A DNA stretch of 38,455 nucleotides from Candidatus Omnitrophota bacterium. GTDB taxonomy: Bacteria > Omnitrophota > Gorgyraeia > JABMRN01 > RBG-13-46-9. The notes beneath the pieces are model-generated. The model saw only the letters and a program-made list of their open reading frames with translations, ran no database searches and was not told where the DNA came from. Below, one piece after another: positions 5,436-38,455 of this stretch (positions within the stretch are counted from its first letter, which is position 1; each line of letters opens with the position of its first letter). A program made the translations under genes and the position numbers. The stretch lies in assembly GCA_016927795.1 (NCBI GenBank), contig JAFGLX010000021.1:1-38455 (forward strand), given 5' to 3'.

Positions 5436-5444
5436 AATCCTAAG

Positions 5445-6287: not shown

Positions 6288-6326
6288 TTAAAGCTTTCCA
6301 TTTTTTACGGAGCGCCCCCGTCGTTT

Positions 6327-7118: not shown

Positions 7119-7170
7119 ATTTTGTTTTGTTGCGGGAACCCCCGAAATAAAAAACAATTTTTACTAAAGA

Positions 7171-7283: not shown

Positions 7284-7320
7284 TCCTAAAATCCGTGTAA
7301 TCATCATAAAAAGTCTTCCG

Positions 7321-8445
7321 TTACTCCGAAAAGCCGTTTGTGCGCTCATACTCTTTTTTGTAAGCCAGTATAGACTGCGAAATAGCTTCCGCGGCCTTTT
7401 CCTTGTAAGCGCTATTATTCAAATTAGACTCTTCTCTTCTGTTGGTAAGAAAGCCGACCTCTATGAGCACGGCCGGCATCTGGGCCCTTTTAAGCACCGC
7501 GAAACCCGCTCCTTTTACCCCTCTTTTTTTTACGCAGAGGTTGTCGGAAATTATATTGCACATATAATAGGCCAGTTCCTTGGATTGCCTTCTGTTCTCG
7601 TTCATCTTCATGTCCATGAGCGTCGCTATCGTTGACAGTTTTTTATCCTGGACAAGCTCCTCCTTTTCAAATTTAAAAGACGCGTTTTCGATAGCCGCCA
7701 GTACGCGTGCGCTGTCGTCGGTGGCGTCCGAAAGATAAAATACTTCCACTCCCTTGGCGCGCGAATGCCTGGAGGCGTTGGCGTGTATGCTGACGAAGAA
7801 ATTGGCGTTTCTTTTGTTTGCGATTTCGGCCCTGTCATAAAGCGGGATAAACGTATCGTTTTCCCTTGTCATGATGACATTAATGCCCTGCTTTTCAAGA
7901 TACTTTTTTATTCTTTTTGATATATCCAGAACGACATCTTTTTCTCTGGTTCCGTATCTGCTTATAGCGCCGGGGTCTTTGCCTCCATGACCCGGGTCTA
8001 TAACGACAGTCTCTATGCGATGCTTTTTCGTGATGAAAACCGGTTTCTCTTTTAACCTCAGCACGTCTTCGGTTACGAATATGGCCGTCTTGACAGGTAT
8101 GTAAGCGGCGCCGTCTTTATATTCTATCGGATAGTCGAACTCCATGCCCCTTCCGTTTATAAGCGCGAAATTTGAGCCCGGCCTTAATACCAGACTGGTC
8201 TTCGCCACCCAAGGGGCCGTAACCTCTATTCTCTGCGAAACCAAATCCCAGTCCCAGCTTAAATTGTAGTAATCGCAGAATTTCAGGAGTGACACATACT
8301 GCACATTGTTAAAAAAAACCGTCTCGTTATAAAGCGATACATCAGGTATCTTTAACATCTCGGCGTGGTAGGCGCAACCGAAAAATAAAAGGGATGAAAA
8401 CAATAGTACTATCAGCGGCCGTGATATTTTAAAAATAAATTTCAT
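7321..8445 (-). CDS. N-acetylmuramoyl-L-alanine amidase (Amidase_3 family) with a lipoprotein-like signal and an N-terminal accessory domain
   Basis: Track ORF of 374 aa. The signal peptide ends LLFFG-C. Catalytic-domain motifs present: VVIDPGHGGKDPGA, EKDVVLDISKR, FVSIHANAS, GVEVFYLS, AVLIEVGFLTN. Confidence 0.9.
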   Translation of the reverse strand: MKFIFKISRPLIVLLFSSLLFFGCAYHAEMLKIPDVSLYNETVFFNNVQYVSLLKFCDYYNLSWDWDLVSQRIEVTAPWVAKTSLVLRPGSNFALINGRGMEFDYPIEYKDGAAYIPVKTAIFVTEDVLRLKEKPVFITKKHRIETVVIDPGHGGKDPGAISRYGTREKDVVLDISKRIKKYLEKQGINVIMTRENDTFIPLYDRAEIANKRNANFFVSIHANASRHSRAKGVEVFYLSDATDDSARVLAAIENASFKFEKEELVQDKKLSTIATLMDMKMNENRRQSKELAYYMCNIISDNLCVKKRGVKGAGFAVLKRAQMPAVLIEVGFLTNRREESNLNNSAYKEKAAEAISQSILAYKKEYERTNGFSE

Positions 8446-8794: not shown

Positions 8795-11700
8795 GATCCG
8801 GAGATAGGGAAGCCCGATTATTTCCGCCGTAACACGCTACAGGTCCCGTCCATGTTTATACCCCGGACTGATGAGAAAATTCTCGAGGTTACGCTTAACT
8901 ACCTTATGAGCTGTCTCGACCTTCCTGATTTTAAAATCCCTCTGGAAGAGTTTAACTACCGCCTTACTCCCACTGTGGCGGGAGTAGACCTTGAGATGGA
9001 CTTTAGCCCGCCCGATGAGGACGGGAAGAAAAAAACAGGCAAATATAGAGAAGGTGAGAATTGGATTGTACCTTGTTCCACAACTTCACGACGCGGTTGT
9101 CGCTTATATGAAGCGGTCATAGACCCCGCTGGAAATGCTTCCCTTCGAAAACCGGGTATAAAAGACAAGGCGGAAGGAGAGAAAAAGGCACCGCTCGCAG
9201 GACATATAAAAACTACCATCGCGCAGCAAAAACCGAAAGAGCTTGAATTGCCGGACAAACTTCACAGGAAATGGTTAGCCGATTTGCCGCCGGATCCAAA
9301 AATAACAGAAAAGATAGATTGCTATACCGGAATAGTCGAATATTCGCGTTACATAGATACGTTGACCAAATTTATCGGCCGTCATTTAGCGAATATCGCA
9401 GTTTTTTATATCGACTATGAAGGCAAGCGCGTTTTTAAACCGGCTTCGCTATATAATCTTTTTATTTTACTTCCGGTAATATGCGAAAATCTAACCCCTC
9501 TGGTCAATTTACCGCTAATGCTTCGCAGGGAAAAGTCAAGAAAAGAGCAGGAGACATATGTCAAAGAAATATTGGAAGCTTCGGAATCGTTTAAAAAGCA
9601 TTTTGCCCTGTTAAAAGATATGTCCGAAAAAGACTTTTACGAGCAAGCGAAGAAAGCTACTCATAGAGGTACACGGGATGACCCCATACCATGGTCTGAG
9701 AGGAAAGAGCATTTCGTAAAGCTCGTATTCGTAGAAAACGAAAAAGCTTCTTATAACCGGTTCCTTTTCAAAGAATGCATCTTACGAATGGAGGCGGCTT
9801 TCGGAGAAGCGGAAAAACACATCGCCGAGCTTAAAAAAACCACCCCCGATCCCGGGTCGGAGGAGGTTAGAGGCGATGCGGGCGGAGCACGGGTACCGGG
9901 ATGGGTTGCGACAATCAATATGTTTTTAAGATCCGGAATTTTTACGCTGGCGCTGTCAGGCAAATTTACTTGGTTTCGCAAGTTTCGGGAAAGGCTCAAC
10001 GTCTTAGCGGGATGGTTATGGCAGGAAATATCACGATTCGAAAAACAGATGCGGCTAAATAGGCTTATATACACCAATCCAAACATAGTAATCTTGACGA
10101 CAAAAATCACATATGAAGAAAGATGCGCAATAGCAGATAGCTGGTACCATCTTAAGCGCCGCTACAACGAAAAAGCTAATATTATTCTTGCCAGACCGAG
10201 AGATGTCAAAATATATAATAAAAGAATTTATATAACAGGCGGTGCCGTAAAGAGCGATGAAGAATTACCGGAGAGTTTCGGCACGTTTAAAAGCGAAAAA
10301 TTTGCAAGACCCGCCGAAGTTCATTATCTATTCAACCTGCATGATATAGCGGTAAGAGATATTGAGAATGTGGACCTGCCGCTCGAGGCGAATAGAAAGA
10401 TGGTAAACTTTCAAGATGACAAAGAAGAGCAGGTGATGCTGGCTGGAAAAATAGGTATTCCCACAAAAAAGATCATCGGAACATTTCTTGTGTCAGACTT
10501 TGATATTTTAGGAGATAAAATAGAAAAAGTATTTGAAGAAGGGCCGGAAAGTTTGAGAAACAGAGTCAAGGCGGGCGAAAAATTTTATCTCCAGCCAAGT
10601 GACCAATCGCGAAGAAGGATTTCCTGCATTATAAGCAGTGAAGGAGATATTGAAACTGCAAAAAATATTATACTCGGAGCCCTTACGAGCGAGAGTGTCA
10701 AGAAAATGCTGGTGATGGAATATATAACTTCCATACGCCCTAGGGAGGAACTTGCAGAACGCGTTCAAGGACAACAAGATAGAGAACCCCAAGAACTTAT
10801 AAATGACGTACGCATACTGGTAACGCTAAACGACCGGACAGGAAAGCTTGAAATAGGGGCAGCAAAGGTTAATGTCGCAAGGGAGATAAGGAGACAACAA
10901 GAACTTATTCCTGACAGAATGAAAGCGGAGGTAATGACGGCGGAACTCGAAGGGCAGCTTTCCTTAGACAATTTTTTAGCTTATATGCCGCTGGCAGGGC
11001 GTAAAAAAACCTTGTTGAAAGACAGGATAATAGAAGCGGCCATAGAGTATGCCAGGGAAGCGTTTGCAGAGGGAAAGAGGTTTGATACACTTGCGGTGGA
11101 TTTTATTATTTCAGACAAGTTAGATGGTGACGGCGTGCCCGAAGTTTATTTTATCGAATGCGCGACGCATTTCAGCGGCGAACGCCAATATAATTCAATT
11201 ACCCAATACGGATTCAGGGAGAGGCATTTCGCTGTTGCGTGCTCAAGGGCGAAAGCATACCGGAATACTTTGCACCATAAAAGAGCGGACGACGGAAAAT
11301 CTGCCTACCAAGCGGAGCAGCAAGGTAATCCGAAAACCCTGCCAAATACTTTCATAAGATCATCGCATAAGGTTATATCTGGTGGTAAAACAGGTACTTT
11401 ATACACGGCGGACAGGGAGAAAAAGCGTGTTCCGGCCGAAACAAAATTTCCCGTCTGGATAAATACTGAAACTAAAGAAGTAAAGATAGGAGAAAAACCC
11501 GAAGGCGAAAATTGGTGCCCATACACCAGCCTTTTACAGATTTCCAGCCCGCCGGCAAAAAAAGAAAAAGACGCAAACGAGTTTTCTGTTAAATTCGCGG
11601 CGTTTTACGGCCCGCATGGACCCGTTATGCCTGTCATAGACGATAAGGATTGCCTTGAAGGAGGCAAATATTACAGGCAAGCCTTACTCGGCATTAAGAA

Positions 11701-14700
11701 GAAAAAAGGCTTTTTCAAGGGAATCATTCCTATTTTTAAAAAATTAATCAAAGAAGAGGGGTTGTCAAAAGAAAATATAGAGATAACGACCTCGCTATTC
11801 AGCCTGAATCCTATATATACCGCACAAATTTTATATGCGAAAAATGGGAAAAAAATCATAGTGATAAACAAGCCCTTTGTGAGCATGATAGCCTTCCAGC
11901 TAAAATACGGGTATGGGAAAATAACGCTTTCCGATAAAAGGTTAATAGAAGAATCCGGAACCGCAAAGAAAAAGCCGCGTTTTATAACATCAGACATTGT
12001 AACAAGTGAAGTCTATTCTATAGCGCTACATGAGATAAGAGCGCATATCCGATTAAACGAGCCGGAAGTAAAGGCCCAATACAGAAGGGGCAAAAATTAC
12101 AGAAATATAAATATCGCGGCAATAGCGTACTACTGGTCCCTGGCGGCCGAAGGATATGATGAATTGCGTATTAAAAGTTTCTTTGAGGACAACCCACATC
12201 TTGTAGCAAGCGCACTTTCCGCATACTACATAAACGAAATAGACAATATAGAAAAGCAGCGTAAGACGCACGACATCCCGAGGCCTATCCAATACGTTAC
12301 GGTAACTTCAGAGGAATGGATGGCATGGCGAGAGAAGTTTCCGCGGTACGCTGCCGGGTTAACTTCATACGAAGAAATGGCACAAGAGGCCAGCTATATT
12401 CTCAGTAATGAGGCAACGCCAAATGGCGAGACTGGAAGAATAGAGAAAACCTCCGCACCGGAAGCTGCTCACCAGGCAAGAATACCTTATCAAGTTCCGC
12501 GTTCGAAAAGGAAATTTGAGGAAGATATCAAAATAATTCCGCTTGGTGGCGTTGGCGGTTCGGGAGGGAGCTCTTTTTATGTGAAAGCCGGTAAAACCCG
12601 ATGGCTTTTTGACGCGGGACAGGGTGTCGGCGTAAATAGCACGTTTATGCCGCGCTTTGACCTCATAGATGACGGATTGGACTTTATCATAATAACCCAC
12701 GCGCACATGGACCATATAGGATGCTTACCGGAAGCGGTCGCATATTTCGGTGATATCCCAATCTATACCAGCAAAATTACAAAAACAAAAATCAGGCTTA
12801 TGCTGAATGATAGGCATTCGGTTAATGAACGCAGGATAAATCGAAAAATCCTGCCGGGAATCGAGAGTAAAAATACAGAACACGACATATGGTTAGTCGG
12901 CAAAAATATCCGGACAGTCAAGTCGAGTAAATTTTATACCTTAAACGGTGATATAGAAGACGTAAAAATTAAATTTCTGTCTGCCGGACATTTGCTCGGA
13001 GCAAATTCCGTGGAAGTCCATACGCCTTACGGCAACATACTCTACACCGGTGATTTTTCCGCTGCAAAAACACGTACGACAAAAGGCATAGAATCGCCTG
13101 AAACCGCACCGGATATTCTCATCAGCGAATCGACATATGGTGGCAGGCTTAGCAGTAGTTCGCGGGAAGGGCTTGAATATGAGCTGGCAAGCGCTGTTAG
13201 TCGGATTATCAGCGGTGAAGGCACGGTTCTTATTCCGTGTTTCGCTTTGGGCCGCTCTTCAGAGGTTACATTGGCCCTATATGACGCCCGCGAAAAAGGC
13301 CTTGTCCCCAAGGATATGCCGATTTACTTAGACGGGTTGGCAGGAACAATGTTTAGGCTTGATATGGAATCCTGGCATTTGATGCCTGATTTACCTCGGT
13401 TAAAATCAAAGAATATTTTTAGCCCTGAAAATGGAATATTCCGCGTAAGGACAGATGAAGAACGCAGGAAAATAATGAATGAACCATGCTGTATTATCGC
13501 GACATCCGGCATGATGATGGAAGGAACGCTTTCGGCAGATATTTATGCCCCCCACATTTTATCCAGTACTCGTAACGCGTTAATTTTAGTGGGCTATCAG
13601 GCGGAAGGAACGCCCGGACGTAAAATTTCGGAATTGAAAAGAGAGGCAACGATTATTTTAGGCGATACACGCATACCCGTCAAAGCAGAAGTCTTGAGCG
13701 TGCCCCTCTCCGGCCATGCCGGCCACGGCCAGATACTTAATTTTATAAAAGGGATAAACGCAAAGCGTGTTTTATTAGTTCACGGAGATGAGAGTGCCAG
13801 AAAGGCCTTACTGAAAGACTTATCTTTTTCCGGCGGCTCAATCGAAACACCTCAAGTGGGAGAGGAAATTGTTTTAGTGCCGGAAAATAAAACCCGCCGG
13901 AAGAAAGAATTCCGGCAAACAATCGCGTTTCGGCTTGAACGGATAAGAACTAAGCGCAAACCCGCGCAACCATTTCCGCGAAGAGTAAGGCTTACCAAAG
14001 AGGGGCAAGAGGCGGAGAAGAGAATAAGATTTGTCGCGGAATTGGTCGAGAACAAAGACGGATTTTTCAAATTTGGAGACACAGTAACCCATGAACATAG
14101 AGAGTGGGCGGAGCGTATTATAACTTATCTGGAGACCAAAGGGCTTCATATCGGTATGATACGGTATTTCTTCCAGGATTTATTTAAGAACTGGAAAGCG
14201 GCGGGATTACCCGTAATTTATCTTTACGGCAGAAATCCTGCGGAACTTTGGGATCTGCGCGAAAAATCGGCGGATGAGTTACGTACTGTAGCAAACATGT
14301 GGCGCAAAAAAGAGAATAAAGCGAGAATGCTCTTTAAGTGCGCCTTCTTCCCGCTGTGGCTTTTTTGGGTTAGCGGTAAGGTTTTTTTACGGGCAGCCAT
14401 TATAATTCTCAAGCCCCAAAGCCGGATGGATTCGACAAAATTATCCGGCCATAAAGACAGTAATAAAAAGAGAGAAACGTTACCATTAGGGTCCAAAGAC
14501 TTGACCGAAAGGATACGCGTAGTTATGGACTCCATAGAAGAAACAAGGCGTAGAGGTGAAAGACTTGCGGCTATAGCCGAAGAAGCGAAAAGAGATTCCA
14601 GTATCTGGGAAAGGTTAAAACATAGAGGGTTTGTCGAAATCGCGCTTATTACCGTATTAGTGATTGTCGCGGGAGCGCTTATATACTTTGTCAGTGCCGA

Positions 14701-17700
14701 TGTCGAAAATATAAGTAACGGCATGTTAGAGTATTTTACCTCAATAGGAGCAAATGGCAATTTGCCGAAGATTGGCATGGCATTACTCGCATATTTAGTT
14801 TTACTCGGCTCATTTACAGCCAATCTCGGTGATTCGCAAGGAGAGCCAGTAGATGACGAAAAAATAATCGATACCGCTAAATCGTCCTGGTCATATCAGC
14901 TAAAGAGCGCGAACCGGCCCGATTGTCTTACGGTAGACAATGAAGCGGCTATAAGAACGCGGTTAGAAAAAAGCGTATCTCACGAAACCAAAAAAATAGT
15001 ATATGATGCCTTTAAACAATTTCCTAACGATATCTATTGCCTGCCAAGGAAAATGCTTGGCAGGAGAAATGCCTATTTCAGCATGGATTACGGTTTCCTC
15101 TGTTTTGCGGATGAAACGTTCGCCGATATAGGCGCAGACGGAATAATCGGAATCCTGGGGGGAGCGACAAGCCTTTTTAACGAAGGCAGATACGAGGCTA
15201 TTAACGCGTTTTGTGATGAGAAAATAGCGGCTTATTCTGAAGAAAGGAAAGCCAAAGATACCGTTCCTGCCGTAGAAAAACCTGTTACGAAAAAGAAACT
15301 CACCGTGACTGCCCGGATGCCAGAAACGCCTCTTGAAGATTCCCCCGCGCAAAGAATGAAGCCCAAAAAGGTTACCAAACCCGCCGAAACACCCGTGATT
15401 TCGCAAACTGTAACTTCAGAAGCGACACCATCAAAAACACACCCTGCATATGCGCAGCCTGGCGCTGAAAAATCATCTATTCTCCCGGCCATCGTAGATG
15501 TAGGAGGCGGGGAAGACGGTACCATAACCGCGGCTGTACTAAAGATGCGCCTTGCTCATGACGTAGAACGTTTGCTAAAAGGCCGGGGGTGCAGAAATCA
15601 GTTCAGCGTTCGATATGGCCGTTTGACTAACACGGACATATCGGTAGAAGCCGACGTAAGCGATTTAAAAGAGCCTAAATTAAACCTCGCCATTATTTAT
15701 GCATGGGATGAATTAAGTAAGGATGCTCTTTTTAAAATAGCGGTTCTGCCTGACCCACGTACAATAGAGCCGTCCGCGGTGAGGTACAAGGCCGATTTTA
15801 CAAAATATGATGTAAAAACACGCCTTGATGAGGTTAATCCTGAAGTAAATAACCTTTTACCGCTATTTAGCGAAAAGGTAGACGTCTGGAGCAGTAAAAC
15901 AAACAATGAGAAATGGGAATGGTTGGCGGATATAGTTGCGTCATGCCGGAAAATACTGGAGGTACGGCACGGTAAAAGGGAAGATGTCGAGAAGCACTTT
16001 GAAAATTTAAAGCATGAAAACCCTGAACAGGCGGAGGAAATAGACCGGGCAAAAACCTTTATAACCGGCATAATAAAAAAGGAATATGAAGTAACTTTTA
16101 AAATACAGGAAATCATAGAGCGCATAATAGGTTTTGCGGTAAAAGATGAAGTACCGGGCAAATGGGTCAAACAAGCCTTTAATGAGATTATTCCTTTAAC
16201 AGAAAAATGGCCAAGACTCAATCTCGCTTTTAAATCCTATATAAAAATGATATTTTCGGATAGCAAGCCTATGTCTGTCCAAAATGTGGCGAACATGGCG
16301 AACGATCTAAGTAAAATATTGCGTAATGAGAGGATACGTGAAATACCGAATTGCGGGCTTTCGGGGGAGGCCCTGGAGAAATGCTATTATGACGCGGAAC
16401 GCCTGGCCCTTTTGGACATTATCGAGGGTTCGCCAGATGCGCAAACCAGCTTGCATAGAAACGGGGTTCTCGGTATTCTTAAAGAATTTTCCGCTTCTGA
16501 CCGCGTTCCGTCTTACCGCCTTCTTAAGTCTGCCGTTGACGTATGTTACGGCACTATAGACCTTGTAACTAACGAAGTGTTTACCGAACTTATCAGGGAA
16601 AATTCACATGTAGAACGAGAGGATATAAAGGAACTTGATATACCTCTGGGAGGAATGGGTATTCTAATTTTGAAAAAAGACCATTCTTCCGGAGAAGATA
16701 AATATAAAATAAAACGTTATATAGAAGGCGCAGGCAACCTTATTTATCCGACAATAATAAGCGCAAGTTACCAACCTTACTGTTTTAAAGGGGAAGAATG
16801 GTATGATAAAGGTGATGCAGCCGTATTTTTATATCCTTCTTGTGGGGAGTGCCCGAACATGGAACAAATGACGATGTTTATGGAGGATTATTTCTATTTC
16901 TGCTTGAGGACCTCGACCTTCCCCGATGTCATGATGGGGGCCGTAGATTCAAATGGAAACGTATTCGCCAGGCGTCTGAACATATCGCCGGGAGACATAG
17001 AAGACTGGTATAAGGTAACGCGCTACGTTACTATAGGTTGCGGGCTTTTTAACACAAGATTGAGAAGACCCCTTGAGATGGACCTTGCCGTAAAAGCATG
17101 CAACGACATTGAGGCTTTGCCCGTAGAAGAAGAAAGAGATAGAACGGGGGTAAGCGTAACATCCGGAGGACGCGCTTTCTCCTGGGAGATGAAAAAGAGT
17201 AAGTTTAGAAGTATCGTAACCCGCATCGTCGGCAGGATCAAAGGGTTTACTAAAATTTTAGAAAACGGTTTTAGAGCTTACGGAATTAGCAGGCGAAATA
17301 TAGAATCCCATCTTAGGGCAATACAAAGGCGCATTCCGGATGGATGGAAAATATTAAGCAATTTCGAAATGTACACGCCGGACAGAGCGCCAGATATGGA
17401 CCTCTTGGATGTGCAATTACCGCTTATCTTACATAAGCTTATTATAGCAACCGGCGAGGAAACAGCGCTTTATGCGTACAATAACAGGACATTTTTCGAG
17501 CCGGTTTTTCTGGAGAAGCTTTCCGCAAAAGATGAGGCGGGATGCAGAGAACGCCGGCAAGCGCAAAAGAAAAAAGAACGAAGGGAGACCGCTCTTACGT
17601 TGCAAGGTATACGGAAAACGGATATACATAACCCCGAAGAAGTAATCCTCGCCCTTAATAAGTGTTCCGACATGCTCGCAAACGGGATGGAACCCAAATT

Positions 17701-20700
17701 CAGCGAAGAACTTTGTAAAATACGCGCGCAACTTGCAGAAAAGTTTTTCTCAGTACTGCTTAAGGAAATTGATGACCTTTTTGAAGAATTTAAAAGCGGA
17801 AGGAACTTTGACACAGGCTCAATATACGGTTTACTGAATAGATGCAGAACTGCGCCGGAAATAGCCGTCTATAATGAAGGTGCAGAATCAGATTTACTGC
17901 ATCTGGTAGATATAGCTACGAAAAAATTAAGTATTATCGATATATATGCCGGAAGTAAAAACTATGCGGAGCATCTTCTGGAAATCGAGGAAATAAGCCC
18001 CGATGTTATAAATGAGGCTACAGGTTTTATACAAGAAGCCGATAGTTGTGTAGAAGGGCTCGATGAGGGAGAAGAGGCTCCGGTTTTAGACAGGTTTGCC
18101 GAACTTAAGAACGATTTTAGGGAAAAACTTAAATATTTGATCAGACACGACATGGAGAAGGTTTACGCGGACGGAAGATTGGCTGACACCGTCCAACTCG
18201 AAGACCTATCCAGGCTTCTATCGCGCCTTTCGCTTATGTGCGAGTTGTTTAAAAACATAAGCGAAAATTCAAGAATAGAGGAATATCGCCGTTTCGAGAA
18301 AATGCGGTTGATAACGCAAGCTGTTATGGAAAGAGAGGCCGCGTATAAGGCGTTAGAGGCGCAAGCGCCCGCAAAAATGTCTGAAGAATTGATGTTAAAA
18401 AGAGGCGAACAATTTTCGGTTTATCACCGCTATACGGGTAGAAGGGTGGACATAGTCTTCAACGGAATAATAAGAGAAACTATCCAAACAGGAGACTACA
18501 AAGGTAAAGAAATCCGGCTTGCCCATTTTACTGTTAAACCTCCTTATGGCTTTATCCCGGTAAGCGGCAACGAGCTGGCATATTCACAGCGCAAACGCGA
18601 AAACTGGCGTTATCCCGGATTGGAAAAGTCTCTTGCGGAACACAAAAAGGCCATAGATACAATGTATTCCTTTTTAACAGAACAAGAAATTAAATGTTCC
18701 GAGCGCCCGGGTAAGTCAGGTGTAAATAACCAGTTTTGGCTATTTGTCCCGAATATATTTGAAGAAATAATAAAAGACAAAAGTGTTGTTGCAGGAGAAA
18801 CAGATTCAGAGGGTTCGATACCATTCAGTAGAGTAGCCAGGGATGCCGGTTTATCGATAGAAATCAGTTTATTGCGCGAATCAAGCATAGGGGGTGAGGA
18901 AGTATATATAAATATATCTGATAAGTTAGACCAGTATGACTTCGAAGCGCTTGAGGTAAGCGCTCCAGTAGCAAGGACAAAACCGCGAGGAAAACCCGCG
19001 TCTAGGATTTCAACAGTAACCGGCGTATCAGGGGTATCCGAGAAAAAAAGCTTACATATTTCGGATGGAATACCGCAAATGGAAACCCCTTCCGATACCC
19101 CGAAGATGCGTTTTACAGACGACGACGAGAGGGAAGCAAGAGATTTCCAGCAGGGCAGAGGACGCTTCTTTAAGACACCGAAAATAAGAACTATACATAG
19201 GGCCGGAAAAAGAGCCGCAAAAAGAGATGATGCGCAACCCGCAAAGAAGGGGAGAAAAACCGGCGAAATCCAAGAATTACAACCATTTATTAACGACGTA
19301 CAAAGAATACTAACAGATGCGGGATATGAAAATGGGCTTAACGGACTTAGCCGTGTGGAAGAAAGAGAGCTTTTTGAAAAGCATACCGGAGAATCCGTGA
19401 ATCTTCTTGTCTACTCGCAACTTTTGTGGATTATAAAAATCGCGTGGTACTATTGCGAAAAGAATTATGGCGTACATATAATGGATTTAGTTCATAGCGG
19501 TATGGACACTGTAAGAAATATTTTGACCAATAAACATCCGTCTGCATCAAGGTTTGACCCGACAAAAGGCAAACTCAGCACTTTTACTACACAATTCATC
19601 CACTGGGGAATGATGAGTTTCCTCGAAAACGAAAACCGCCTCCCCAATATCGACGACTTTGCGTTTTTTGGAACAGGCAGGGATATTTCTTCTCTCGAAG
19701 CGTCACCGCTTCACAAGGAGAGGGTTAAGCAACTTTTTCGTTACCTTAATGACCGGGAAGAGGAGATAATAAAGTTATTTTTTGGGCTGAACGGCAACCC
19801 TTCATTGTCCACCGAGGAGATCAGCGTTCTTTACAGACATTGTATTTCTCCGGTTACTGTTGAGAAGAAAGTGAGTACAATTGTAACAAAACTCTGCCTT
19901 TTGGGAACAAGCGGCGAAAATTCTCTCAAAATACTTAACGAGGATGAGAAAAAACACCTTTTTTCGCTTAAGACAATCCGCATGGTAGAGGATTTCGTAA
20001 GTGACCCGGACAAAAGAGCGACTTTAGATCCACGCGATTGCGAGATTCTCGAATTGCATTATGGCCTTTCGGGTGAAAAGCCAATGGGCTTTCGGGAAAT
20101 GGGAGGGCGTTTTCATCTTAGCAAGACCCGCCCGTCGCAGTTGTGCGCAAGGGCAATGGCTAAAATAAGAGAAAGTTACGAATCTGCGTGGGAAAATATA
20201 AGTCGTTCAACGGGCATAACGGAAGAAGGCATGCGTGAGGCTTACGGCAGGGCAAAGGAAAAAATCCAGCCTAAAGACAGTCTTTTGAGGGCTGAGCGCG
20301 CGCTTCCTGCGTTGGACGAATTCGTATCGGAATTATCCAAAACGGCCCGTTATATCACTGAAAATATAGCCGAGCTTCTTATAGCGCACTATAATTTAAG
20401 GCATCCGGTCGACACTCTGGATTTCCACCAATATTCTATGCCGAAAAAGATAACCCTTGAAGGTGACGAGGAGCTTAACTTTGAAAATGTCGTGAATTTT
20501 ATAGAAAACAAGGAAGGATTGACGAGCTGGGAGGATATAGCCGGATATTTCAACGCTTCCGGCGAAAGGGTGACCGTCAGGCGATTAAAAAAGAACTTTT
20601 ACGCTAAATTAAAGGAATACGCCAATTCCCAGCGCGAAAAACACAGGCTGGGCGTCCCGGACGGCGTTATTCCCCTCGTCTATGACAGAAAATACACGGA

Positions 20701-23700
20701 ACGGTTAAAAAAGGTCATTAAAGCTATTGAGGGAGAAACCGCGAAGGAAAAAAGCTACCGGCTGGGATTAGCCTCGAACATAGAAATATACAAAAGGTTC
20801 CCACATTATAAATCACGGCAGGCTTTAAGAAGATTATTCAGGGCTGTAAAAAGAAAACAATTCCTTTCTGACCTGAACTCAAACCGCAAATTTTTAAACC
20901 GTCTCGGAACGCCGAGGCGCATTCTTCTTGATATCGTGGAATACCCGGCACTCTATATAAGAGATGCCGTTAATAGCACAGTAAGTGACGCTGGATTAAC
21001 GGCGCATGCAATAACCGATGCCGCCAGCGCGAAATACCGCGGTTTGCGCAAAATGCTTAATAAGATTAATCTTGCACAGATAAATTACAACCTTTTTATA
21101 TTACAGGATGAAACGATGTATTCATCCGATGATACCGGAGAAAGAAAATACCGCGACCAGATTTTAAGGGTTCTTGAAGAGTTGGGAGGGCTTGGAAGTC
21201 CCGAGGAAATAGCGCACATTTTGCGGAAGTATTACTATATTGGAGCAAAAGGGCAAACCGTGGCCGAACACGCCAGAAAAATAGACTGGAAAAAACTTAA
21301 TGAAGATAGAGAATCCAGGCGGATTTTCCCGCTTCGGGTTATTTACAAAAAAGGTGATTTGAAAAGCGCTAATGGCGTACCTTGGGTATCAAAAATAAAA
21401 GAGGCATTTCTTGAAAAAACCGGCAGCCACCGCAATTTTTCACCTTTTGAAAAAATAACATTGCCCATGTTGTATAAACGCATAACCCGTTTAGTTCGCG
21501 GTAACGGCAATGGAAATGGGGCAAAGGAAGTTATCGAAAATTACTTTAGGCAGGCTGCCGGACTTACATTAAGAATCTCTACGAATCAAGAAATGAAAGT
21601 GGATAGGGATAGCTTTTTCCGATATGGCGTTGAGAGAGCGCTCAATTTGACTTCCGCGCAGCTTGCCTTAAACGGTGAGGACGGCTTTATCAAGAAATTT
21701 GAGCATAACTTAAGAAGAGTGGCAATCGGAGAGTTTCCTCTTGCAAGCTCTTCTTACGCGTACTGGTTGGAGCCGCGGATAGAAAAGGCCCGGGAACCCA
21801 TTCCGGACGCGGAAACTGTAGAGGTTCAGCCTTCAGGTGTACGTTTTACTACTGATAAAGAAGAAGAAGCACGGGCTTTTCAACAAGGCAGGGCGCGCTT
21901 CTTTAAGACACCGCGGAAAGAGATGTCCAAGAAGCCATTGTTCCAACATGTTATACCATTTGAGCGAGGCACGACACCGGAGGATATACTAAACGGAATA
22001 GATTTGGATAAAATAGTCGGCGATATGCTCAAATTTATATCATCCCATACGGAGATAGCTTATGATATAAAAGAAAAGATTACAGACCCTCAATCGGATC
22101 TTGACTGGTTAATGCGGGAAACCGTCGAAAACGCGCTTGATTCGATAGCGTTAAGGTTCAAGCGTGATAGAAGTTTTTCCTGTGGCATAGTAGAAATAAA
22201 GGCATATTGTGCGGATAGGACTACCCTTATTATCGAAATTGTAGACAACGGAGAAGGCTCAATAAAAAAGAGCCAGAACCCCTGGAAAAAAAGAAATGCT
22301 AAATCTCTTGGACTTGCCGGCCGTTTTAAAGGGGGAATGCGTCTTATTTATAAAATTGCGAAAGACTTAAGTGGCAAAGCAGAGCTTGTGAACCGAAATG
22401 GTACCAAAGGTGCTATACTCAGAGTTAAATTAACCTCCCGCAGGCCGAAGATAGAAGAAGCGAAAAAACCCGTTCCGGATGCGGGATCCGAATATCACCT
22501 GCCGTCATTCGGGCCATTAATGATATTTTTCGCCTTTTGGTTTAATTACGAAAAGCTCAAAAGATTAATCCTATCGCTGCAAGGCATTTTGAAAAAAATA
22601 GCCGTAAAATGCCATCCGAGTACAGGCCCACCTCAAGTAGTATCCGCTTTTAGCAGGGCATGGAAGGCTATAGTCGAGAGCAAGGCCTGGAATATATTTT
22701 TGGGTTCATCGGCTATTTTTACTTTAGGTGCCCCAATTTTCTGGTGGGCGCTTAAATACGGAATGCAGAAAGATGCCTCTCTCGTTACGGTTATCGCCAG
22801 CTTCCAGACAGTGGCGACGTATTTTATGGCCACCGAACTTGTAAAAATCGAAGAACGCGCTCTAAAAAAGTTTTTTGCCGTTTTACTCGTTACACTAGGC
22901 GTCCTTTCATTTTCACTCGCCAAGCTTTTTGAGGCAAATTTCGCAATAAATTCTGTCATAGGAATAGTTTTACTCTCATCGGCGTGTATTTTTATATTTC
23001 CAATGCAGTATACTTTCGGCGCCAGAGCCACGCAGGCGCACAACGTGAATCCCAACCTTTTGACAGCGTTAGGATTTAGTGTGGGGGCAATCACATCATC
23101 AATCATCCAGCTTATGATAGAGCCCGCTTTGGCCCTTAATCCTGTGGGACTATTTGAACATCTGTCGGCGCCTATTTTCACACTAAACGTTTTCTGTTTC
23201 TTATATGTACTGAAAGAGCTGATACAGTGGCTTCCGTATAATTATTTTCTAAAAAAACTCGGGGCGTCCGTGACGCAGGCCTCGTTTGCGACAGTGCCTT
23301 TCATAACCTTCGCTATAACGCTTTTCCTTGCGCCTTTTAATATTACACCGGGTTTGGTGGCTATTTTTATAACGTCGATTATGATGGTTGTAGGGGGTAA
23401 TATATGGCTTGTCCGCCACAGTAACCAAAACAATACCGGCGCGAAAAATAAATCGAACCTACTTTTTATATGTACTCTTCTATTTATAGCGGTTATCGCC
23501 AGGGCAACAGGGCCTGTTTTTGGCATAAAACTTGTTACAGGACCGGAGGACTTCTCTTTCATCCAGGCAATGTTCTCCGTTAATTTACTTTCGGCGGCTT
23601 TTTCATGGATAGTAGTTGCGATGTCGCCCGGACGAAAAACAAAGCCTAAATATTCCGCGCTGAAAACGTTTGTATTACGGTACATGCTGTTTAGGGGAAC

Positions 23701-26700: not shown

Positions 26701-29700
26701 GCTTGGGGAAACAACCGTGGCAAAGGCGCCGTCCAGCTCCGAGACCACAGAAGTAAAAAACCCGGCCCCGCCTATTGCAATAATCGCCATCGCGGCGCTC
26801 CCTGTTATCGGCAGATTATCCGTTAAATTATGGAAATGGGTAAAACGCGCTACAGGAATATTCAAGAAAACGGCCAAAATGACCAGGGCCGAGAGATATG
26901 TATTTAGACTCAAAAATGAGGCCCAGTATTTTTATGACAGCGCCGTAATGTCATTTGCGAACTCCTCCTACCTCGACGCGATAACTTCTTTTGAGAAAAG
27001 CGCCGATATTTATATAGAGTTACATGGTCTTGTTACGGACAACACTGTTTTTAGTGAAAAATTGCGCGCGATAGCCAAAACACTCAAAGAAATTTTAGAT
27101 TACATAAGTAACGAAGGGGATTATGAAGAGTGCCTGGGGGCGCTGCAAAAACTTTCGGGTATGCAGAAAAGGACGGGTAAATTATCCAATCTGCTTTACT
27201 TAGTCAAAACAATCGCGGGAATGAACGAGAATATAATATCAGCACGCATACAAAGAAGGCTTATGAGTAAAGACGTAAGTTGGAAAGTAAGATTTGACGA
27301 GAAAAATCTTAAAATAGGCGACGCGGTTCTGGATAGGCGTTTTCGTATGTTGCTTTTATACAAAGGCCGCTTTCGCCGAAAGTTAACAGGCATGGCATCA
27401 AGGAAAAGGGCGCACCAGCTAGATTCACCGACGGGACATCAGAGTTTATCTATAAACAGCTTTTCGCAAATAGGGTTACTAAAATTTTTGTTACTTAGAC
27501 CACCCGCATCCTTCTCCCGGGAGTCGGAGAAGGAAGAACCGTCCGCAAAAATATCGAGTTATGTAATTAAGCTTATTGACGAAAATACGGCGGATGCCAG
27601 AATTGTGTTGTGCACCCTTCTTGAGCATAAAGATATAAGCGATACCGTAAAGGGGGTAATCATAACATATGCGACCGGTCCGGAACATGAGCCGATAAGG
27701 GCCCTTCTTCCATCCGTGCGCCACGCCGATAATAACGAAGACGCTCCCGATGACTTCCCCGGCACCAAACGTTACTTTATGACACCGCGAAAAAAACCGA
27801 AGCGGCCATCCAGAAAACCGCCTACCACCGCCAACCCCGGGTTGGAGGTGGTTAGACCGCTAGCCTGGCCGCAGGCACCTGTGGAAGTGTTAACGCAGAC
27901 GGATACAGGTATCTTTCCAAACGCATTGTGGCATGGGAGCGAAGTAGAATTTAATGTTATAAGAAAAGCATTGGGCTTATCCATAAAGGAGTATAGAGCC
28001 GCCCTTAATGCTGGAAAACCTAAACCGCTATCGCCGGTGACAATGGATGTTTATTTGCATCGCAGAAAAAATCCGGTTCCATATTTACACCTTGAATGGG
28101 CACGCAAGCTGTATGCTCAGAACGCCCCGCGCCGGCTTGAGGTATTGCTTAAAAGGCGCAATTTAACCGTCGAACAATTTACAGCCGAGCTTGGCGAAAG
28201 CGGTATTACTGTATACGTGTACGAGATAAAAGAGATGCTGGAAAATAAAAGGCCTGTCCCATATGAAATTTTGATAACCGCAACCAAGAACGACAGTGAA
28301 AAGTCAGGCCCTTTATTTGACAGGATATACCGGTGCTCAAAGCTGGTAGGAATAGAATTCAGTGAGAAGGTAAGCCCCGGTTCGCCTTTACCGAACTATT
28401 ACATGTATGAGATGAGAAGTGGTAAGCGGCCGATTCCCGATGAAATTATGCTTAATGCCCTGAAGCTAAACGTATCTTTGCTGGGCGAAGGTATTACTCA
28501 ATCTTCGCAGTTGCAATCCGAATCGGACGATGTAATACCGCCGGCAGTACAGGGACTGGCGGAGCAGGAAGATACGGCCACGATAATAAAGCAAGATGGT
28601 TTGCCGATTAAGAGCGTATCCGCCGCGGCAAAAAGCGGCGAGTTGCCGGTTGAGAGCGAAAAAAGGCCTATAAAATTTGAATTTCTCGAGGTAGGCCAGA
28701 TAATTACGCTTGGCGGTAGGGACTATAAAATTCTACGCCGATACTTTGCCCATGATAACCATAAATGGATAAAATTAGTGGAGGACATAAAGACGCACGA
28801 AATTTTTATTATCAAAGGTTTCAACAAAGACCATATAGATACCATAAACGCGCTGAGAAATTTACAACACCCCTGCCATGCTAAAATAATTAAAGTGTTC
28901 GAGCCGGAAGGTGCCTTTATGATGCCCGACTATGGAGCAGAAACATTTATCGACCATATATGCCAAAGCGCGGATGAAGGTTTGCCTTTGAAAGAGTGGC
29001 TTTCGGCGAGAGTAAACGAGGTAATATGGCTTTTGGAGGCCATTAAAGAAATGTCCGAAATCGGCAGAGACCATGGCGATCTATTGGATAAAGAACACCA
29101 TATTTTATATTCTGACGGCTTGCCGCACATCGTAGATTATCATATCTCTTCCTTATCCCGAGACCACTCCCGCGATCTTCACGGCATTATTTTGCAGGCA
29201 GAAGAGATAGTACGTACGGCAGAAGCAGCCTATGGATCGGGCGTTCCAGGGACGGGTATTATAGAAGAACTTGGCCGAATATTGGACGATATGAACGGCA
29301 GTTTTGAGCAGACTTTTACAAGAAAAAATGCCGATGAATTTATAAATATTCTGGCACAGTATCTCGATTCTATCGGTATGAAACGCATATCGGCCCAATC
29401 CGTGCTGACGCAGCCCGATTTACCCCCGCATTCGGAAATAGTTACGACTGTTTCTGAACCGATAACGCGGGTTGTCATAATTCCTGCCGGCGGCGTGGAA
29501 TTGCTCAAGCCGCACCAGCCCCCGCTTGAAAGATATAGTATAGAAGACGATGAAAATCTCGGCGAGTGGAGCGGCGGATTACCGGAAGGGGTAGACAAAA
29601 AAGGGTCAGGTAGCAAGCAGGAGGAGTTGGACAAGCCGCTTGGCATTGAACTTGTACCCGGCGTATTTGTACTTGAAGACGCAGTAAATACCGCGCTTGC

Positions 29701-32700
29701 AATGATATATCCTTCAGAAGAACTTCGCAGCAGTGTATTCAGGCCGATGAGCCCGCAGGATTACGACAGATTTCTAGAATTTATACGGCAAGGAGACAGC
29801 AATCTTTATTCCCTTGTTGATAAAACCGCCAAAGGCCTGCGAAGGCTCAACAGCGTATTGCAGCGTTCAATGGCGCTTGCTTTTATAAGTAAAGGAGGTC
29901 TCCTGCAAGATACTAACGCCATACGGCTTAAATTCAAGAGATACTCTTTCGCGGCGGCAGTAAATAATCTTTCGGCAGATGACTACAGATTATTTTATGC
30001 CTATTTTTCATCTCTTTTCGGGCGATGGTGGCAGGAGGCGGCGCCGGAATCTTACGGAAGGTTCATAAGCGGTTTGGAGTATATTGCCGAACACGATGTA
30101 CCACCTGGTCAACGCGAGCGCTTTAATGAAATTGTGACGAGGGTAAAGACGGACGCCGAGCAGCTTTATAAGCTTATGATTCATAATTTCGTACACCATT
30201 TCGGGGGCCGGATTCTGCCTCCCGAGCATAAAGATCCGCTGTCCGGCGGCCTGAGCGGCGAATTGCCGGATGCGGGATCCGAATGGCCAATTACATCTGG
30301 TAGCAGTGGTTATGACTTGCCTACAAGCGTGTTTAATGGCCTTATGGTAAAGCTTCTTGCGGCAGGTTTTGATGAAGGCCAAGCGCAATTGGTTATTTCG
30401 CAATTGTGGCTTGACGCGAATGTGGAGGATTGGAATAAGGCATACGAGATTATGAATCTTCTTATTGATATTATGGTCGTTGCAGGATTATCGCCGCGGG
30501 ATTATAAGGCATTGAACCAGCTATGGGATTTACATTGGAAGAGTTATAAAGAAAAAATGCCGGCAGAGTGGCTAAGAAAAATAAAAGAGGATCTCAGTAC
30601 AATCCCGGTGGAAGAGAGAAAAAATGTTATTGAGAATGTGCCAATTTCAGGTGCTAATTTAGAATTGGTTGGCAGGTATGGCTTAGCTCGCGCAAAGGAG
30701 GCATTCGGGATATCTGGAAAAGAATCGATCGATGCGGATGAAAGAATAGAAAGTAAGGCACTTGTAGCGGATGCTGAAACAGGAGAAAATATTCCTGCTA
30801 CATTTAGCGTTCGAGCGGATAACAGAGACGAAGAAAGCATTTATATCAATTATAAAAGAAGCCCAGATTTTCCGGGATTTAGCGGGTATTTAAAAACCAA
30901 GGTAGATAGAGAATGCATGTATGTAAGTGAGATTAATTCGCAAGAGTGGGATAAGTTGGATACGTCCGCCAAGTCCAAGATAACCGATTGGAGACAAAGA
31001 TTATTAGATGAAGCTATTAGGTGCGCCGGGGAAAGAGGATTGAAAAAAGTCGTCATTGCGCCCTACTGCGCATACAGGCTTATAGGCGGCTGCTCGGTTT
31101 ACAGAGGATATAAGGATTTTACCAGTTTGCCTTTCGAAGCAGGTTTTAAATTGAGAGTTTATGACGAAAAAACATCTTTTAGCGTGCGCGATAAGCATAT
31201 GGCCTCATATATGTTATGGGAATTAGATCTCACGGGGACTGATGCGAGGCCCGTTTCAGATAAAGAAGATAGCGGAGATATTTCAAGACGGGATCTTATA
31301 ATGCCTATATTGGCAGCTCTCGGTATAACGCTAGCGGTATTTTCAAAAGGTCGCGCTCAAGGATTGGAGTTGGACCTTAACGATAAAATAAATGACCAGA
31401 CCGAAGGACGATGCCCTGAAAGTGTAAAGATCGCCATAAACGACGCGCTGAACACGATTACGCGCAGACGCGATATGAGGAGTTATCAGATAGAACGCAT
31501 AGACATAGTTAACGCTGATGGCGGAGGGTTTAATGTTAAATTCGTTGTTAATACACGAAATGGCAGGCCCGAACCTCCATTCACAGACGTCCCGTTTACC
31601 AAACAGGATTTGGCAGACAAGGAATTATTGCAGAGTAAGATTGACCTTGTAACACGCAATATCATCGGCAGAGCATATTTGCCGGTCGAAATAAAGGGAT
31701 TGAAATATATTCGCCACTTAGCCATGAGTTTAATCTACGCTATCATCCCCGCACTTATAATACTTGTTTTAAGAGACGCATTCAGAAGATATCGCGCCTA
31801 TGTTAATTCGCAGAGAGAATCAGAGGCGCTAAAAAGAGAGCATGATTACCAGAAGCGGCAGGCCGACCGCCACGCGGGCTTAACAGACCGGAGCGCTTCC
31901 GATATCAGAAAACGTCGTCGAGGATCCATTATTTTTGGAGAAGATTCAAGAGGCACCTCTCGCGGCAAGGATATATCTCTCGCATTGCCGGGAAAGAAAT
32001 TCGACCTGTCGCCAAGAGACGTAGCGGAATGGCCCCCAATGATAAGGGAATTATTAAGTAAAAAACATAGAAAAATCTGGGAATGGGAGGAGCTTCTCGG
32101 GGCACTGGCCGGTTATTTCCCGGAAGGCCTTGCCACGCCCGAGAATATCGAAAAGATAACAAAAGGCACATTGAAAGCCAAAACCATAAAGTCTGCCTTG
32201 CGCGCTTACGGCATCAGGGAGAAGGTGGGAATTGCAGGCGAAAGGCGTTCAAGGGATGAATGGATAAAGGTTTTGAGAGTCTTATCCGACTTGTGTCCGG
32301 AAGGCGTTCGCACACCCGCGGATATAGCAAAAATTATCCAAGGGTATCTCACGGAAGAACAAATAATAAGCGTGATAAGGCGCCATAAGCTGACATATGA
32401 AGAGACAGGTATTGTGCTTTCTTCTGGTAAACCAGCGGAAACCATTACGGATGCAAAATCCGGATTTGGTAAAGAGAATAAAATCGGCCCCGGGCCGATG
32501 ATGATAGCGCTTTTCGCGATACCGTTTTTTGTGCGCATGTGGAGGCGGTTAACCCGAAATATCGACGGGAGAATAGAACTACCCCCGCTATCCGGCGGTG
32601 GGGTGATTTGGAGAATGCTTCGCACCATTCTGCCGGGCGCATTCGGCCTTTGGGCCGTTCCGCCGGGCAAGCCGGATATGCCGGAAAGGAGAAGCGGTCA

Positions 32701-35700
32701 CGGATTTGCGAAACCTACCAAGAAATTAATTTCTATAGAAGAGGCAAAAAGTCTGAAGCTAAGATATGAACGAATACAGTTATTGGCGCAGAAATTTATT
32801 AATGATTGCGAAAGAGCATCAACGCCTGACGAGATAGTGCAAGCTCGTCAGAAATTTTTGGCGCTAGAAAGCCAGCTTGATCTTATATACGAGGCTTTTT
32901 CGGATATGGATCAAGCCGGATATATTGGTCTTAAAGAATATGTTGACAGCGTAACTGATATGATAAAGAGAATCAACACTGCCTTTCGGATACGTATATT
33001 ACCTTCCTTAAAGGATATTAATGAGGCGGGTTTAGAATCGGCAAAGGAGGAGGACTTTGAACGCACTTTGCTTATGGAGGAAAAAAGTTTGTTGGATAAC
33101 GAATCAATCGCTACCCATAAAACCGGCATCCCAGGAGAGAGCGTCAAATCCGATCAGGTAGTTACAGCACTGGTTGTCGAACAACCGCAGGGCGTTGAAA
33201 TAACGGAGGATATTTCGTTTTTTGATCGAAATTCACAGATGGCACTATATAGCGTCGTTGATGATCTGGAAGTTGTTACTCCTAATATGCTGGTCGCCAG
33301 ATTCGAAGTTTGTGACTATTATTTGCCTTATGAGGTAGTAAAATGGTTATGGCGGCGCAGCCAGCATAATAAAATTCTTTCACGCTTTTTGTTATTATAT
33401 GAAGATTATATGAAACGCGGAAAACCTCAAGAATCTCCAGGCACGGACATCAATATTAAGGATACTTCTGCCTATCAGGACGCGGTGTATCATTTAAAAA
33501 CAGCTCATTGGACAAAGCCTGGATATTGGAATGAAGTCAAGCCGGAGGTAAAAAGAGAACTGATAATACAGGCCATGAAAGAACATCCTTTCGGTTTTGG
33601 CATGTTTGCAAAACCCCTGATATTCCTGAATGGAGGCAACCTCAGGGGGTTATATGCTTATTATAAAGCTAAAGTGGTTACTTCGAAAAAAGGCGGCAAG
33701 ATGGCGCGCTTTGCCGCATTGGACCTCATTAGAAGTGAACTGAATATTCCGGAACCAAAACAGGGCATTCCTTACGAAGAAGTAATCGCCAAGTTAAAGA
33801 AGAAGAAACGGGTTATCTGGCGTTGGGTAAGGCCCGATGTGCAGAAGAGGCTTATACAGGATATGTCCGATGAGCTCGGCAAAGATATCAAAGATTTCGA
33901 TTCGAGCTGGTTTATAGCGACCGTAGATAATAAAGTCCATATGTGTATATATAAAAAATTCGGAGGAGCATCCCTAAATGGTCTTTATCAGTATTATTGC
34001 CGCCTTTACAAGGATCCGGCAGGCAACTTGCCAGTCATAGATATAATGCGAAGTCGCCTCGGCATAGGTATAAAAAATTATACCTTTGAAGAGATGATTT
34101 CGGGATGGCGACAGGGTAAACTTAAAGATATTAGATGGCGCCACGTGCCTTCGGCTGTAAAACGGCAGGTACTTTTTACGCTCGCAGACAAATACCAGAC
34201 GCCTCCGGCAGCGCTTTTTGTCAGCCATCTTGTAGGCGGGCTTGAAGGGGTGTGCCTGACTCAGCTGCTTTATCCATATATGAAGAGAGGCAGAACCGCC
34301 GCAAGAGCATTCCTGCAGTTGAAAAAGGATCTTAAGATACCATCGTTGGATGTAGAATATGTCCTCAAATGTTTCAAGGAGAAAAAAGCGCCTTATTGGA
34401 AAGGTGTTTATTCGAAAGAAGTGCGGCGCAAACTGGTAGAGATGCTTGCGACAGCGTTGGGAATATCTCCGGAAAAATTGATGGCAGGACATTTTAAAAA
34501 ACAGTTACCTGTATTTTTTGACAGGTCGCTCGCTGGCTTAGCCGGGCAATATCTAAGCACAGACGGAGCGTTTGGAGAACCCGAAGTATCGGATCTTCTT
34601 AAAGACGTGGGTATTAAGCGAGTCAGGGAAACAACATTTGAGGAGTTCGAGCGATGCATTGAATCTGGTAGAGAGATTAATTGGAAGAACATGCCGGTGA
34701 GCATTAGACGCGAAGCCATAAAGTTTATCGCGAATAAAATAGGTATTAAACCGATGGATCTGAAAACTAATATGCGTGACAAATATGGAAGTAAAATCGG
34801 CGGACTGGTTGCGGCTTATGCGCGCGAGAATAATCTATCACCAACACTCGAGACATGCAGGCAGATGTTGCGTGACTACAATGCCGGTGATCTTCTTGTA
34901 GAGCAGATTATGCAGGAGATACAACCAGTTCGTTATACAAGGGATAATTATGAGTTGCGGATGGCTCAGTGGAATAGGGCAAAACCAAAGATCGAAGAGG
35001 CGATATCCTGCGGGATGGGAAGCAAGCTTGGCACATCGCTTTGCTCATTGCTTTTTAGCACAGACTCACATGAGCGTGCAATGCGCTTTGAAATATTAGG
35101 CTATCTTCAAAGAATAGATGCCCCGGGATGTACCAGCCCGCTCATTAATTTCATTAGCAAGATAGGCACAGGAGACGTTGAATTATGGAGAGAAAGCAAT
35201 AGAGCATTAGGAAACGTAATGACGGATAACGAAGTGATAATGACTTTGAAAAATATGGCCAACAGTGCTGAGGAAGAAAATAGTGAATCTGCCTCGCGAG
35301 CAGGCTCCAGAAAGGTGTTTAAAAGACGGATTAGATACAATCGAAAAGGTGGGCTGCATATGTATATGAATGGTTCGGTAAAATCATGGCCAGGCGCGAC
35401 ACCCGTCGGGCCTGAGAAACAGCCGTTTATGGATGCCCAGACCCCCGGTCAATTCCCGCCGGACATGGACAATAATGTGGGGCACGGCCAAGGATTTGTA
35501 AAAAGGGTTGAACCACCTGTGGACAGAGGTGATGTTGCATCTCCAGCCGGGCCTCAACCGGTATCCGCATCCGGCGACGCTACTTCGCCAGCAACGGAGG
35601 ACAGTTCGGAGCTTCGCGCGGCGGTGGACAAAAAAAGAGAACCACCTCCATTATCCGGCCCCGGACCTATGATGATAGCGCTTTTCGCGATACCGTTTTT

Positions 35701-38455: not shown

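Follow-up and report, generated by a model that had tools for sequence, protein, structure and literature searches.

A repeated hydrophobic cassette, a candidate membrane anchor, in a giant Omnitrophota gene

What is a short hydrophobic peptide doing three times over, in almost the same DNA letters, within a single enormous gene? The question is raised by contig JAFGLX010000021.1 of a Candidatus Omnitrophota bacterium (assembly GCA_016927795.1), whose positions 1 to 38,455, hereafter the window, were analyzed as one stretch of forward-strand DNA. Most of the window is taken up by a giant open reading frame (ORF), and within this ORF there recurs a 21-codon unit, termed here the cassette, that encodes a glycine/proline motif, a hydrophobic core and a cluster of tryptophan and arginine. 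A preliminary description of the locus compared the cassette to C-terminal protein-sorting signals and proposed that its copies cut or pin the giant protein, module by module. The analysis described below favors the second of these roles with moderate confidence: the cassette would be a lineage-specific membrane anchor that has been reused at the module joints of a giant multi-enzyme, membrane-threaded protein.

Young and old copies of the cassette

Three copies of the cassette were found exactly where they had been placed by the preliminary description, all on the plus strand and all in the frame of the giant ORF. Copy 1 (32486-32548, residues 7930-7950) reads GPGP-MMIALFAIPFF-VRM-WRR, copy 2 (35657-35719, residues 8987-9007) reads GPGP-MMIALFAIPFF-TCA-WRW, and copy 3 (36818-36880, residues 9374-9394) reads GIGP-MMIALFAIPFF-ARA-WRW; the encoded peptides are GPGPMMIALFAIPFFVRMWRR, GPGPMMIALFAIPFFTCAWRW and GIGPMMIALFAIPFFARAWRW, respectively. 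Each opens with the helix breaker G-P/I-G-P and continues with a hydrophobic core of 12 residues, Pro among them, then three positions free to vary and finally a Trp/Arg cluster; a further Arg lies no more than 8 residues from the W-R-R/W. The copies are direct, in-frame repeats spaced 3171 and 1161 nt apart, and at least 1,969, 912 and 525 residues follow copies 1, 2 and 3, the ORF being still open at the window end.

The likeness among the copies extends to the DNA itself. Copies 1 and 2 share a 33-nt core, ATGATGATAGCGCTTTTCGCGATACCGTTTTTT, without any difference (32498-32530 and 35669-35701), and copy 3 has it at 36830-36862 with a single mismatch, a synonymous change of TTC to TTT, just as had been reported; none of 100 shuffled sequences contained a match. 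At degenerate positions where two copies encode the same amino acid, the pairwise counts of identical codons are 12/14, 13/14 and 11/14, compared with about 4.8 expected from the codon usage of the ORF (P = 7e-5, 3e-6 and 6e-4, respectively). The codons in question are common ones in the giant ORF. Because codon identity is so far above the expectation from codon usage, the three copies share a common DNA ancestry and are not just a convergent peptide. The similarity is tightly confined, reaching background within about 15 nt before the cassette and 45-75 nt after it, and in this respect too the earlier account of unrelated flanks proved accurate. It fared less well with the charged, low-complexity linker said to follow each copy, which is clear for copy 3 only; after copy 2 comes a linker rich in Ser, Pro and Asn, and after copy 1 an eroded second cassette that is discussed below. 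In each copy (at 32504-32521 in copy 1 and at the corresponding place in copies 2 and 3), I-A-L-F-A-I is encoded by ATAGCGCTTTTCGCGATA, an 18-nt sequence that is a perfect mirror repeat, probably just because the peptide itself reads as a palindrome.

How recently these copies arose was addressed by the comparison of synonymous divergence that the preliminary description had suggested. Nei-Gojobori estimates over the 21 codons gave proportions of synonymous differences (pS) of 0.07-0.30 and of nonsynonymous differences (pN) of 0.08-0.13, values that fit recent copying. No nonsynonymous difference falls within the 11-codon core (pN = 0); the amino-acid changes cluster in the three residues that separate FF from W, and each copy carries a few private changes. 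Recent copying, whether by duplication or by gene conversion over short tracts of paralogous anchors of greater age, is enough to explain the identity.

There are also signs of a deeper history. Two more divergent copies had been claimed, at 26762-26848 and at 22511-22543, and the first of these stands. The surrounding segment (26744-26863, residues 6016-6055, TTEVKNPAPP-IAIIAIAALPVIG-RLSVKL-WKW-VKR) aligns to copy 3 and its flanks with a score of 57, against a shuffle background of 21 +/- 4.4 that did not reach 57 in any of 5000 trials; it is the top non-cassette tile in the whole giant ORF. This is an old, diverged paralogue, with codons unlike those of the three young copies. The second (22484-22576, residues 4596-4626, LPSFGPLMIFFAFWF-NYEKLKR) is at most a possible further copy, its central segment scoring 36 in the tile scan, a value that 6% of shuffles equaled in a shorter test. 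Directly after copy 1 lies what might be called a ghost cassette (32570-32632, residues 7958-7978, RIELPPLSGGG-VI-WRMLRTIL). This aligns to the KREPPPLSGPGP and WRWMRGII on either side of the core of copy 2, keeping the copy-2 prefix (ELPPLSGGG) and suffix (WRMLRTIL); the 13-residue hydrophobic core is gone, and the 19-residue hydropathy mean is 1.22. One in 1000 shuffles aligned as well, the prefix has about 70% nucleotide identity, and the arrangement also suggests that duplication and decay have been going on for longer. With an old paralogue at residues 6016-6055 and an eroded copy after copy 1, the cassette family is therefore older than its three young members.

The cassette as a probable membrane anchor

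A helix breaker followed by a hydrophobic core with a Pro in it and then by a Trp/Arg cluster fits a membrane anchor, and the proposal that the cassettes pin the protein gains support accordingly. Kyte-Doolittle hydropathy means over 19 residues are 1.46-1.66 at the cassettes, within the top 1.6-2.5% of windows in the ORF and straddling the classical threshold of 1.6. AlphaFold2 modeled copies 2 and 3 as helices that begin just after the GPGP or GIGP, with low predicted local distance difference test (pLDDT) scores. Like known stop-transfer and signal-anchor segments, the cassette has a hydrophobic helix with a one-sided aromatic and basic flank, follows the positive-inside rule and parts soluble domains; it differs from them in that its core is just 12 residues long with a central Pro, and in that successive copies have the same charge polarity.

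The following scheme would account for these features. As the giant protein is inserted co-translationally, the hydrophobic core of each cassette would enter the membrane while the W-R-W/R cluster, by the positive-inside rule, would stay at the cytoplasmic interface, so that the inserted cassette would tether its neighboring modules to the membrane. The near-identical DNA is the product of the recent intragenic copying described above, by duplication or short-tract conversion among older paralogous anchors, with one such older anchor persisting in diverged form at 26744-26863.

That the copies sit at module boundaries, as had been claimed, is borne out for the stretch between copies 1 and 2. 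This stretch contains a predicted all-alpha repeat scaffold (33230-35221, plus strand, residues 8178-8841) with homologues elsewhere. A HMMER scan of 1.84e9 representative proteins with residues 8720-9919 as the query returned three matches, none of them across a cassette. One protein of 736 residues (P0002) is 39% identical to residues 8178-8841 over 671 columns and is the product of a stand-alone gene: there are in-frame stops upstream, and the protein starts with MKKFIVITILFLVSC, a signal peptide with a LVSC lipobox pattern. A second homologue, found with an alignment of the module, lies on a 21.5-kb contig (Ga0172362_10000367, hereafter L004) that is all one ORF of at least 7,180 residues and that has only this module in common with the window, at 44% identity. 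By these comparisons the segment that separates copy 1 from copy 2 is an autonomous module. The model of the module consists of all-alpha repeats (pLDDT 72); it has no sequence match in the PDB, and Foldseek returned only weak alpha-solenoid matches (E >= 0.013, TM-score <= 0.2). Internal repeats of about 100 residues (W-R/K-W-V-x-P-x-V-Q/K-R-x-L...) occupy 33443-34192 of the window (residues 8249-8498), and the same repeats are present in P0002 and L004.

The cassette itself did not travel with the module. It is absent from P0002, and GPGPMMIALFAIPFF is absent from L004. L004 does have a two-copy hydrophobic cassette of its own, R-x-S-R-x-PRSF...GI.TIP.ILG...HYRA (6350-6472 and 11894-12016), whose copies share 72% nucleotide identity and 20/29 codons and are unrelated to the cassette of the window. 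One of them lies about 100 residues past the module, and copy 2 of the window lies about 120 residues past it. The L004 cassette and copy 2 thus take equivalent places, an anchor having been kept there in position and not in sequence. Such an arrangement is what a generic membrane anchor would lead one to expect, and it suits a signal for specific recognition less well. Each L004 cassette copy is followed by a second transmembrane helix, and the boundary anchors of L004 are mostly transmembrane pairs. L004 also contains a 300-nt duplication of 88% identity (17143-17442 and 19498-19797).

Several observations weigh against the anchor. Bounded by Gly/Pro and Arg and no more than 12 residues long, the core makes a borderline transmembrane helix, and the AlphaFold2 model of the cassettes as helices is of low confidence. 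Moreover, the positive cluster is C-terminal in all three copies and there is no convincing transmembrane segment between copies 1 and 2. The same orientation for these two copies is topologically impossible unless the weak ghost segment at residues 7969-7987 also crosses the membrane, the cassettes have a monotopic or re-entrant topology, or the protein is cut. The pointers to the side of the membrane conflict as well, P0002 being lipoprotein-like and seemingly exported whereas the charges before the downstream anchor of L004 suggest a cytoplasmic module. As for the origin of the copies, three sequences are too few to tell gene conversion from simple duplication, and GTDB species representatives include no close relative of the genome for a comparison of concerted evolution.

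Recombination, processing and RNA-level alternatives

The cassette might also be a joint at the level of DNA, in which case the in-frame direct repeats would be footprints or substrates of homologous recombination, by which modules are gained, lost or exchanged, and the anchor-coding cassette would serve at the same time as a portable junction in the assembly of mosaic giant genes. The direct orientation, shared frame and spacing of the copies suit such a role, and an exact core of 33 nt is near the minimal length for RecA-type exchange. Giant ORFs are mosaic, as the one module common to the window and L004 illustrates, and other near-identical in-frame repeats exist: a 26-nt palindrome found twice in the window, the L004 cassette, and elements at the ends of a related contig, L005, all described below. 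That said, only one genome fragment is at hand, with no deletion or duplication variants from a population, and a recombinase and terminal inverted repeats are absent. With a core pN of 0, the cassette is a well-formed anchor under purifying selection, and protein function alone explains its retention. Such a DNA-level joint is unlikely. It is likewise doubtful that the cassette serves as a portable module joint, be it an in-frame recombination junction, with a house cassette for each lineage, or an enzyme cut site yielding membrane-tethered modules.

A further possibility is that a dedicated enzyme reads the G-P-G-P, helix and basic cluster as an internal sorting or processing signal and cuts or attaches each module. 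The cassette does have the tripartite layout of a small-residue/Pro motif, a short hydrophobic helix (MMIALFAIPFF) and, three residues on, a basic cluster (W-R-R/W), and in this it resembles the Gly/Pro-rich motif, hydrophobic helix and basic cluster of the PEP-CTERM/exosortase, GlyGly-CTERM/rhombosortase, PGF-CTERM/archaeosortase and LPXTG/sortase systems. It also lies where an autonomous module gives way to its neighbor; the topological problem of copies in the same orientation would vanish if the chain were cut; and cleavage of giant proteins has been speculated upon in published work. Yet the signals of those systems occupy the extreme C-terminus (the last 25-40 residues), whereas the cassettes are internal, with 525 to 1,969 or more residues after them, and their motif is G-P/I-G-P in place of P-E-P, G-G, P-G-F or L-P-x-T-G. 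A scan of five cassette peptides against NCBIfam found no family at E<=10, though HMMER filters may drop very weak matches. Nor did Pfam and NCBIfam reveal a sortase, exosortase, rhombosortase, archaeosortase, rhomboid or peptidase domain in the nine upstream genes of the window or in the multi-transmembrane blocks of the ORF.

The search for further cassettes was equally unrewarding outside the giant ORF. A cassette profile run against 5.8e9 protein clusters gave 2 word candidates, none of them scoring, the 1.84e9 representative proteins yielded no other copy, and a degenerate DNA pattern for MMIALFAIPFF had 0 matches in three DNA collections (GTDB genomes, JGI metagenomes and IMG/VR). The cassette is likewise missing from the homologues of the module. 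Internal in position, different in motif, and with no model match and no cognate enzyme in the window, the cassette was rejected as a known sorting signal, and the kinship with the PEP-CTERM, GlyGly-CTERM and PGF-CTERM types, as first suggested, does not hold. An internal sorting or processing signal read by a dedicated enzyme is quite unlikely. As to the idea that the cassettes cut the protein, it is unsupported, nothing indicating cleavage at these sites or excluding it.

An internal Sec signal peptide was considered and rejected as well. There is a partial fit in that the h-region is of the right length (7-15 residues) and that ARA in copy 3 and TCA in copy 2 would be possible at -3/-1, but in every copy the W-R-W/R follows directly, and the residues at this place in copy 1 are VRM. 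Positively charged residues near the start of a mature protein prevent its export.

The conservation of synonymous positions had been read in two ways, as recent duplication or gene conversion, which the pS of 0.07-0.30 favors, or as constraint on the nucleotides or RNA. The second reading would make the cassette an RNA structure, a translational pause at the Shine-Dalgarno-like GGAGGTGG, or a frameshift site at the T6 run. Synonymous differences do number 0-1 in the core against up to 2-3 in the G-P-G-P and tail, but the contrast is based on about 6 synonymous sites in the core and, at about P 0.05, is not significant. Cassette RNAs are less structured than their shuffles (z = +1.1 to +1.5), their three contexts are without a common fold, and Rfam had no match to the cassette at E<=1. 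The GGAGGTGG in the W-R-W codons was found 5 times where 0.29 would be expected, but it is enriched solely because it is located inside repeated units, and it was dropped as a pause signal on that ground. Similarly, +1-frame stops do lie 6-10 codons past the T6 run, but such distances are ordinary, stops falling within 8 codons at 49% of ORF positions, and a frameshift to a nearby stop was rejected. The codons used are, as noted, common in the giant ORF. All told, an element acting in the nucleotides or RNA is very improbable. A separate feature of copy 2 is that CCACCTCC (35642-35649, minus strand) pairs with the GGAGGTGG at 35712-35719 in a 10-bp stem that encloses the copy; its 141-nt context folds with z = -2.7, and copies 1 and 3 are without such a pairing partner.

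It is hardly credible that the assembly joined separate, repeat-sharing genes in frame at the cassette, for even though an exact repeat of 33 nt could mislead small-k assemblers and the related contig L005 breaks at a repeat, the exact repeat is shorter than usual final k-mers, GC content and GC at third codon positions are uniform over the segments (on which ground a chimera was rejected), the frame is open for 29.7 kb that include many cassette-free regions, and L004 is an independent giant ORF of the same kind of architecture.

Repeats within coding sequence have precedents. Rickettsia palindromic elements are, like the cassette, short repeated DNA units in coding sequence, with unrelated flanks and in-frame readthrough. 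They form hairpin palindromes across many genes, whereas the cassette is non-palindromic, has no predicted hairpin (the z-scores being those given above) and a core pN of 0, and its known copies are all in one gene.

The giant ORF has other in-frame repeats as well. A near-perfect 26-nt palindrome, CACCGCCAACCC(C/G)GGGTTGGAGGTGG, read in frame as TANPGLEVV, occurs at 27826-27851 and 35746-35771, 7.9 kb apart and at 97% identity, with a weaker third copy at 9841-9870; the second copy lies 27 nt past cassette copy 2 and has a strong predicted hairpin. Another joint-like motif, ...RFTxDxExEARxFQQGRxRFFKTP[KR], is found at 19109-19180 and 21842-21913 (residues 3458-3495 and 4368-4406), just before a sigma-70-like module and before the module that follows it, respectively. 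Amino-acid identity between the two is 61% and nucleotide identity 72%; a third, shorter copy (RYFMTPRK) is located at residue 6358, and PDAGSE recurs at residues 4593 and 7190. The contig L005 (GCA_016202795.1, JACQNY010000094.1) is 2.7 kb long, with an ORF open at both ends that is homologous to residues 9548-9914 of the window. Its two ends (1-60 and 2690-2748) carry the same element, CGAGGCGAAGCCGAAGCAATCTCAG...GGGATTGCTTCGACAA (RGEAEAIS..GLLRQ), with a 10-bp inverted repeat, and the assembly apparently broke at this in-frame repeat.

The giant gene and its kin

The window has a GC content of 44%, and its first 8.4 kb hold ordinary genes, including those for PilZ, an AsmA-like protein, Ham1, RNase PH, two fumarase subunits, an Asp/Glu racemase and Amidase_3. 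The giant ORF (8714-38455, plus strand) follows. Its frame is stop-free from 8699 to the final base of the window, or 9,919 codons, with the 3' end still open; the probable start is the ATG at 8714, and the product is given as at least 9,919 residues. From this ATG the N-terminus reads MLKRNIIFKTICVILVVTFIFENILWADP, a signal-like segment. Recognizable Pfam domains are few and far apart: Lactamase_B/Beta-Casp/RMMBL at residues 1286-1715, Sigma70_r4 at residues 3774-3825, and Glyco_hydro_77 (GH77) at residues 5203-5735. A hydropathy scan found about 26 hydrophobic segments in the 9,919 residues, and a block of three or four transmembrane helices lies between cassette copies 2 and 3 (35894-36322, plus strand, residues 9066-9208). 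Counts of internal promoters and terminators equal or approach the shuffle expectation.

The sole match found for the window is a 5.5-kb Logan contig of SRR13394437, and an exact look-up of the amidase and fumarase genes of the window found neither on record. Searches for giant-protein homologues with residues 7900-9420 and 3000-8000 returned none, or just a distant GH77-bearing protein, and the only match of a GH77 query against GTDB was a MalQ at 26% identity. One multi-domain, GH77-containing protein of 4,883 residues (P0001, NCBI/Logan) repeats a GARLA/AARLA motif many times between its domains, possibly a joint motif of its own.

The architecture of the ORF is that described for the giant genes of Omnitrophota. 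Published accounts of these proteins give a mean of about 22 transmembrane helices for those of 10,000 or more residues, offer topology predictions whose ambiguity their authors acknowledge, and place a divergent SecA DEAD/preprotein-binding domain in most full-length proteins (West-Roberts et al. 2023 bioRxiv 10.1101/2023.11.21.568195; 2026 preprint 10.64898/2026.06.07.730766). Like the giants punctuated by transmembrane segments ('Archaeovorin'/multi-enzyme type), the present ORF encodes at least 9,919 residues, begins with a signal-like segment, and has scattered enzyme domains with hydrophobic helices between them (about 2% of residues) and mostly no recognizable family; at roughly 10,000 residues with many transmembrane segments, it is a mosaic of unrelated enzyme and scaffold domains. 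Pfam found no SecA DEAD or preprotein-binding domain in the 9,919 residues, though the gene extends past the window. The ORF differs in that one anchor has been used three times in near-identical DNA, with an older paralogue besides, a reuse that the accessible parts of those accounts do not describe.

The cassette is best seen as an incremental observation within a known architecture and not as a new sorting system, the modest twist being the reuse of an anchor in near-identical DNA. Giant bacterial genes, encoding 10 to 150 thousand amino acids, have been recognized only recently, and the window provides a small but concrete handle on how their products are built, inserted into the membrane and perhaps processed. 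If the pattern is general, such anchors would supply natural cut points for the computational dissection of giant proteins and a hint at how modules are added to them.

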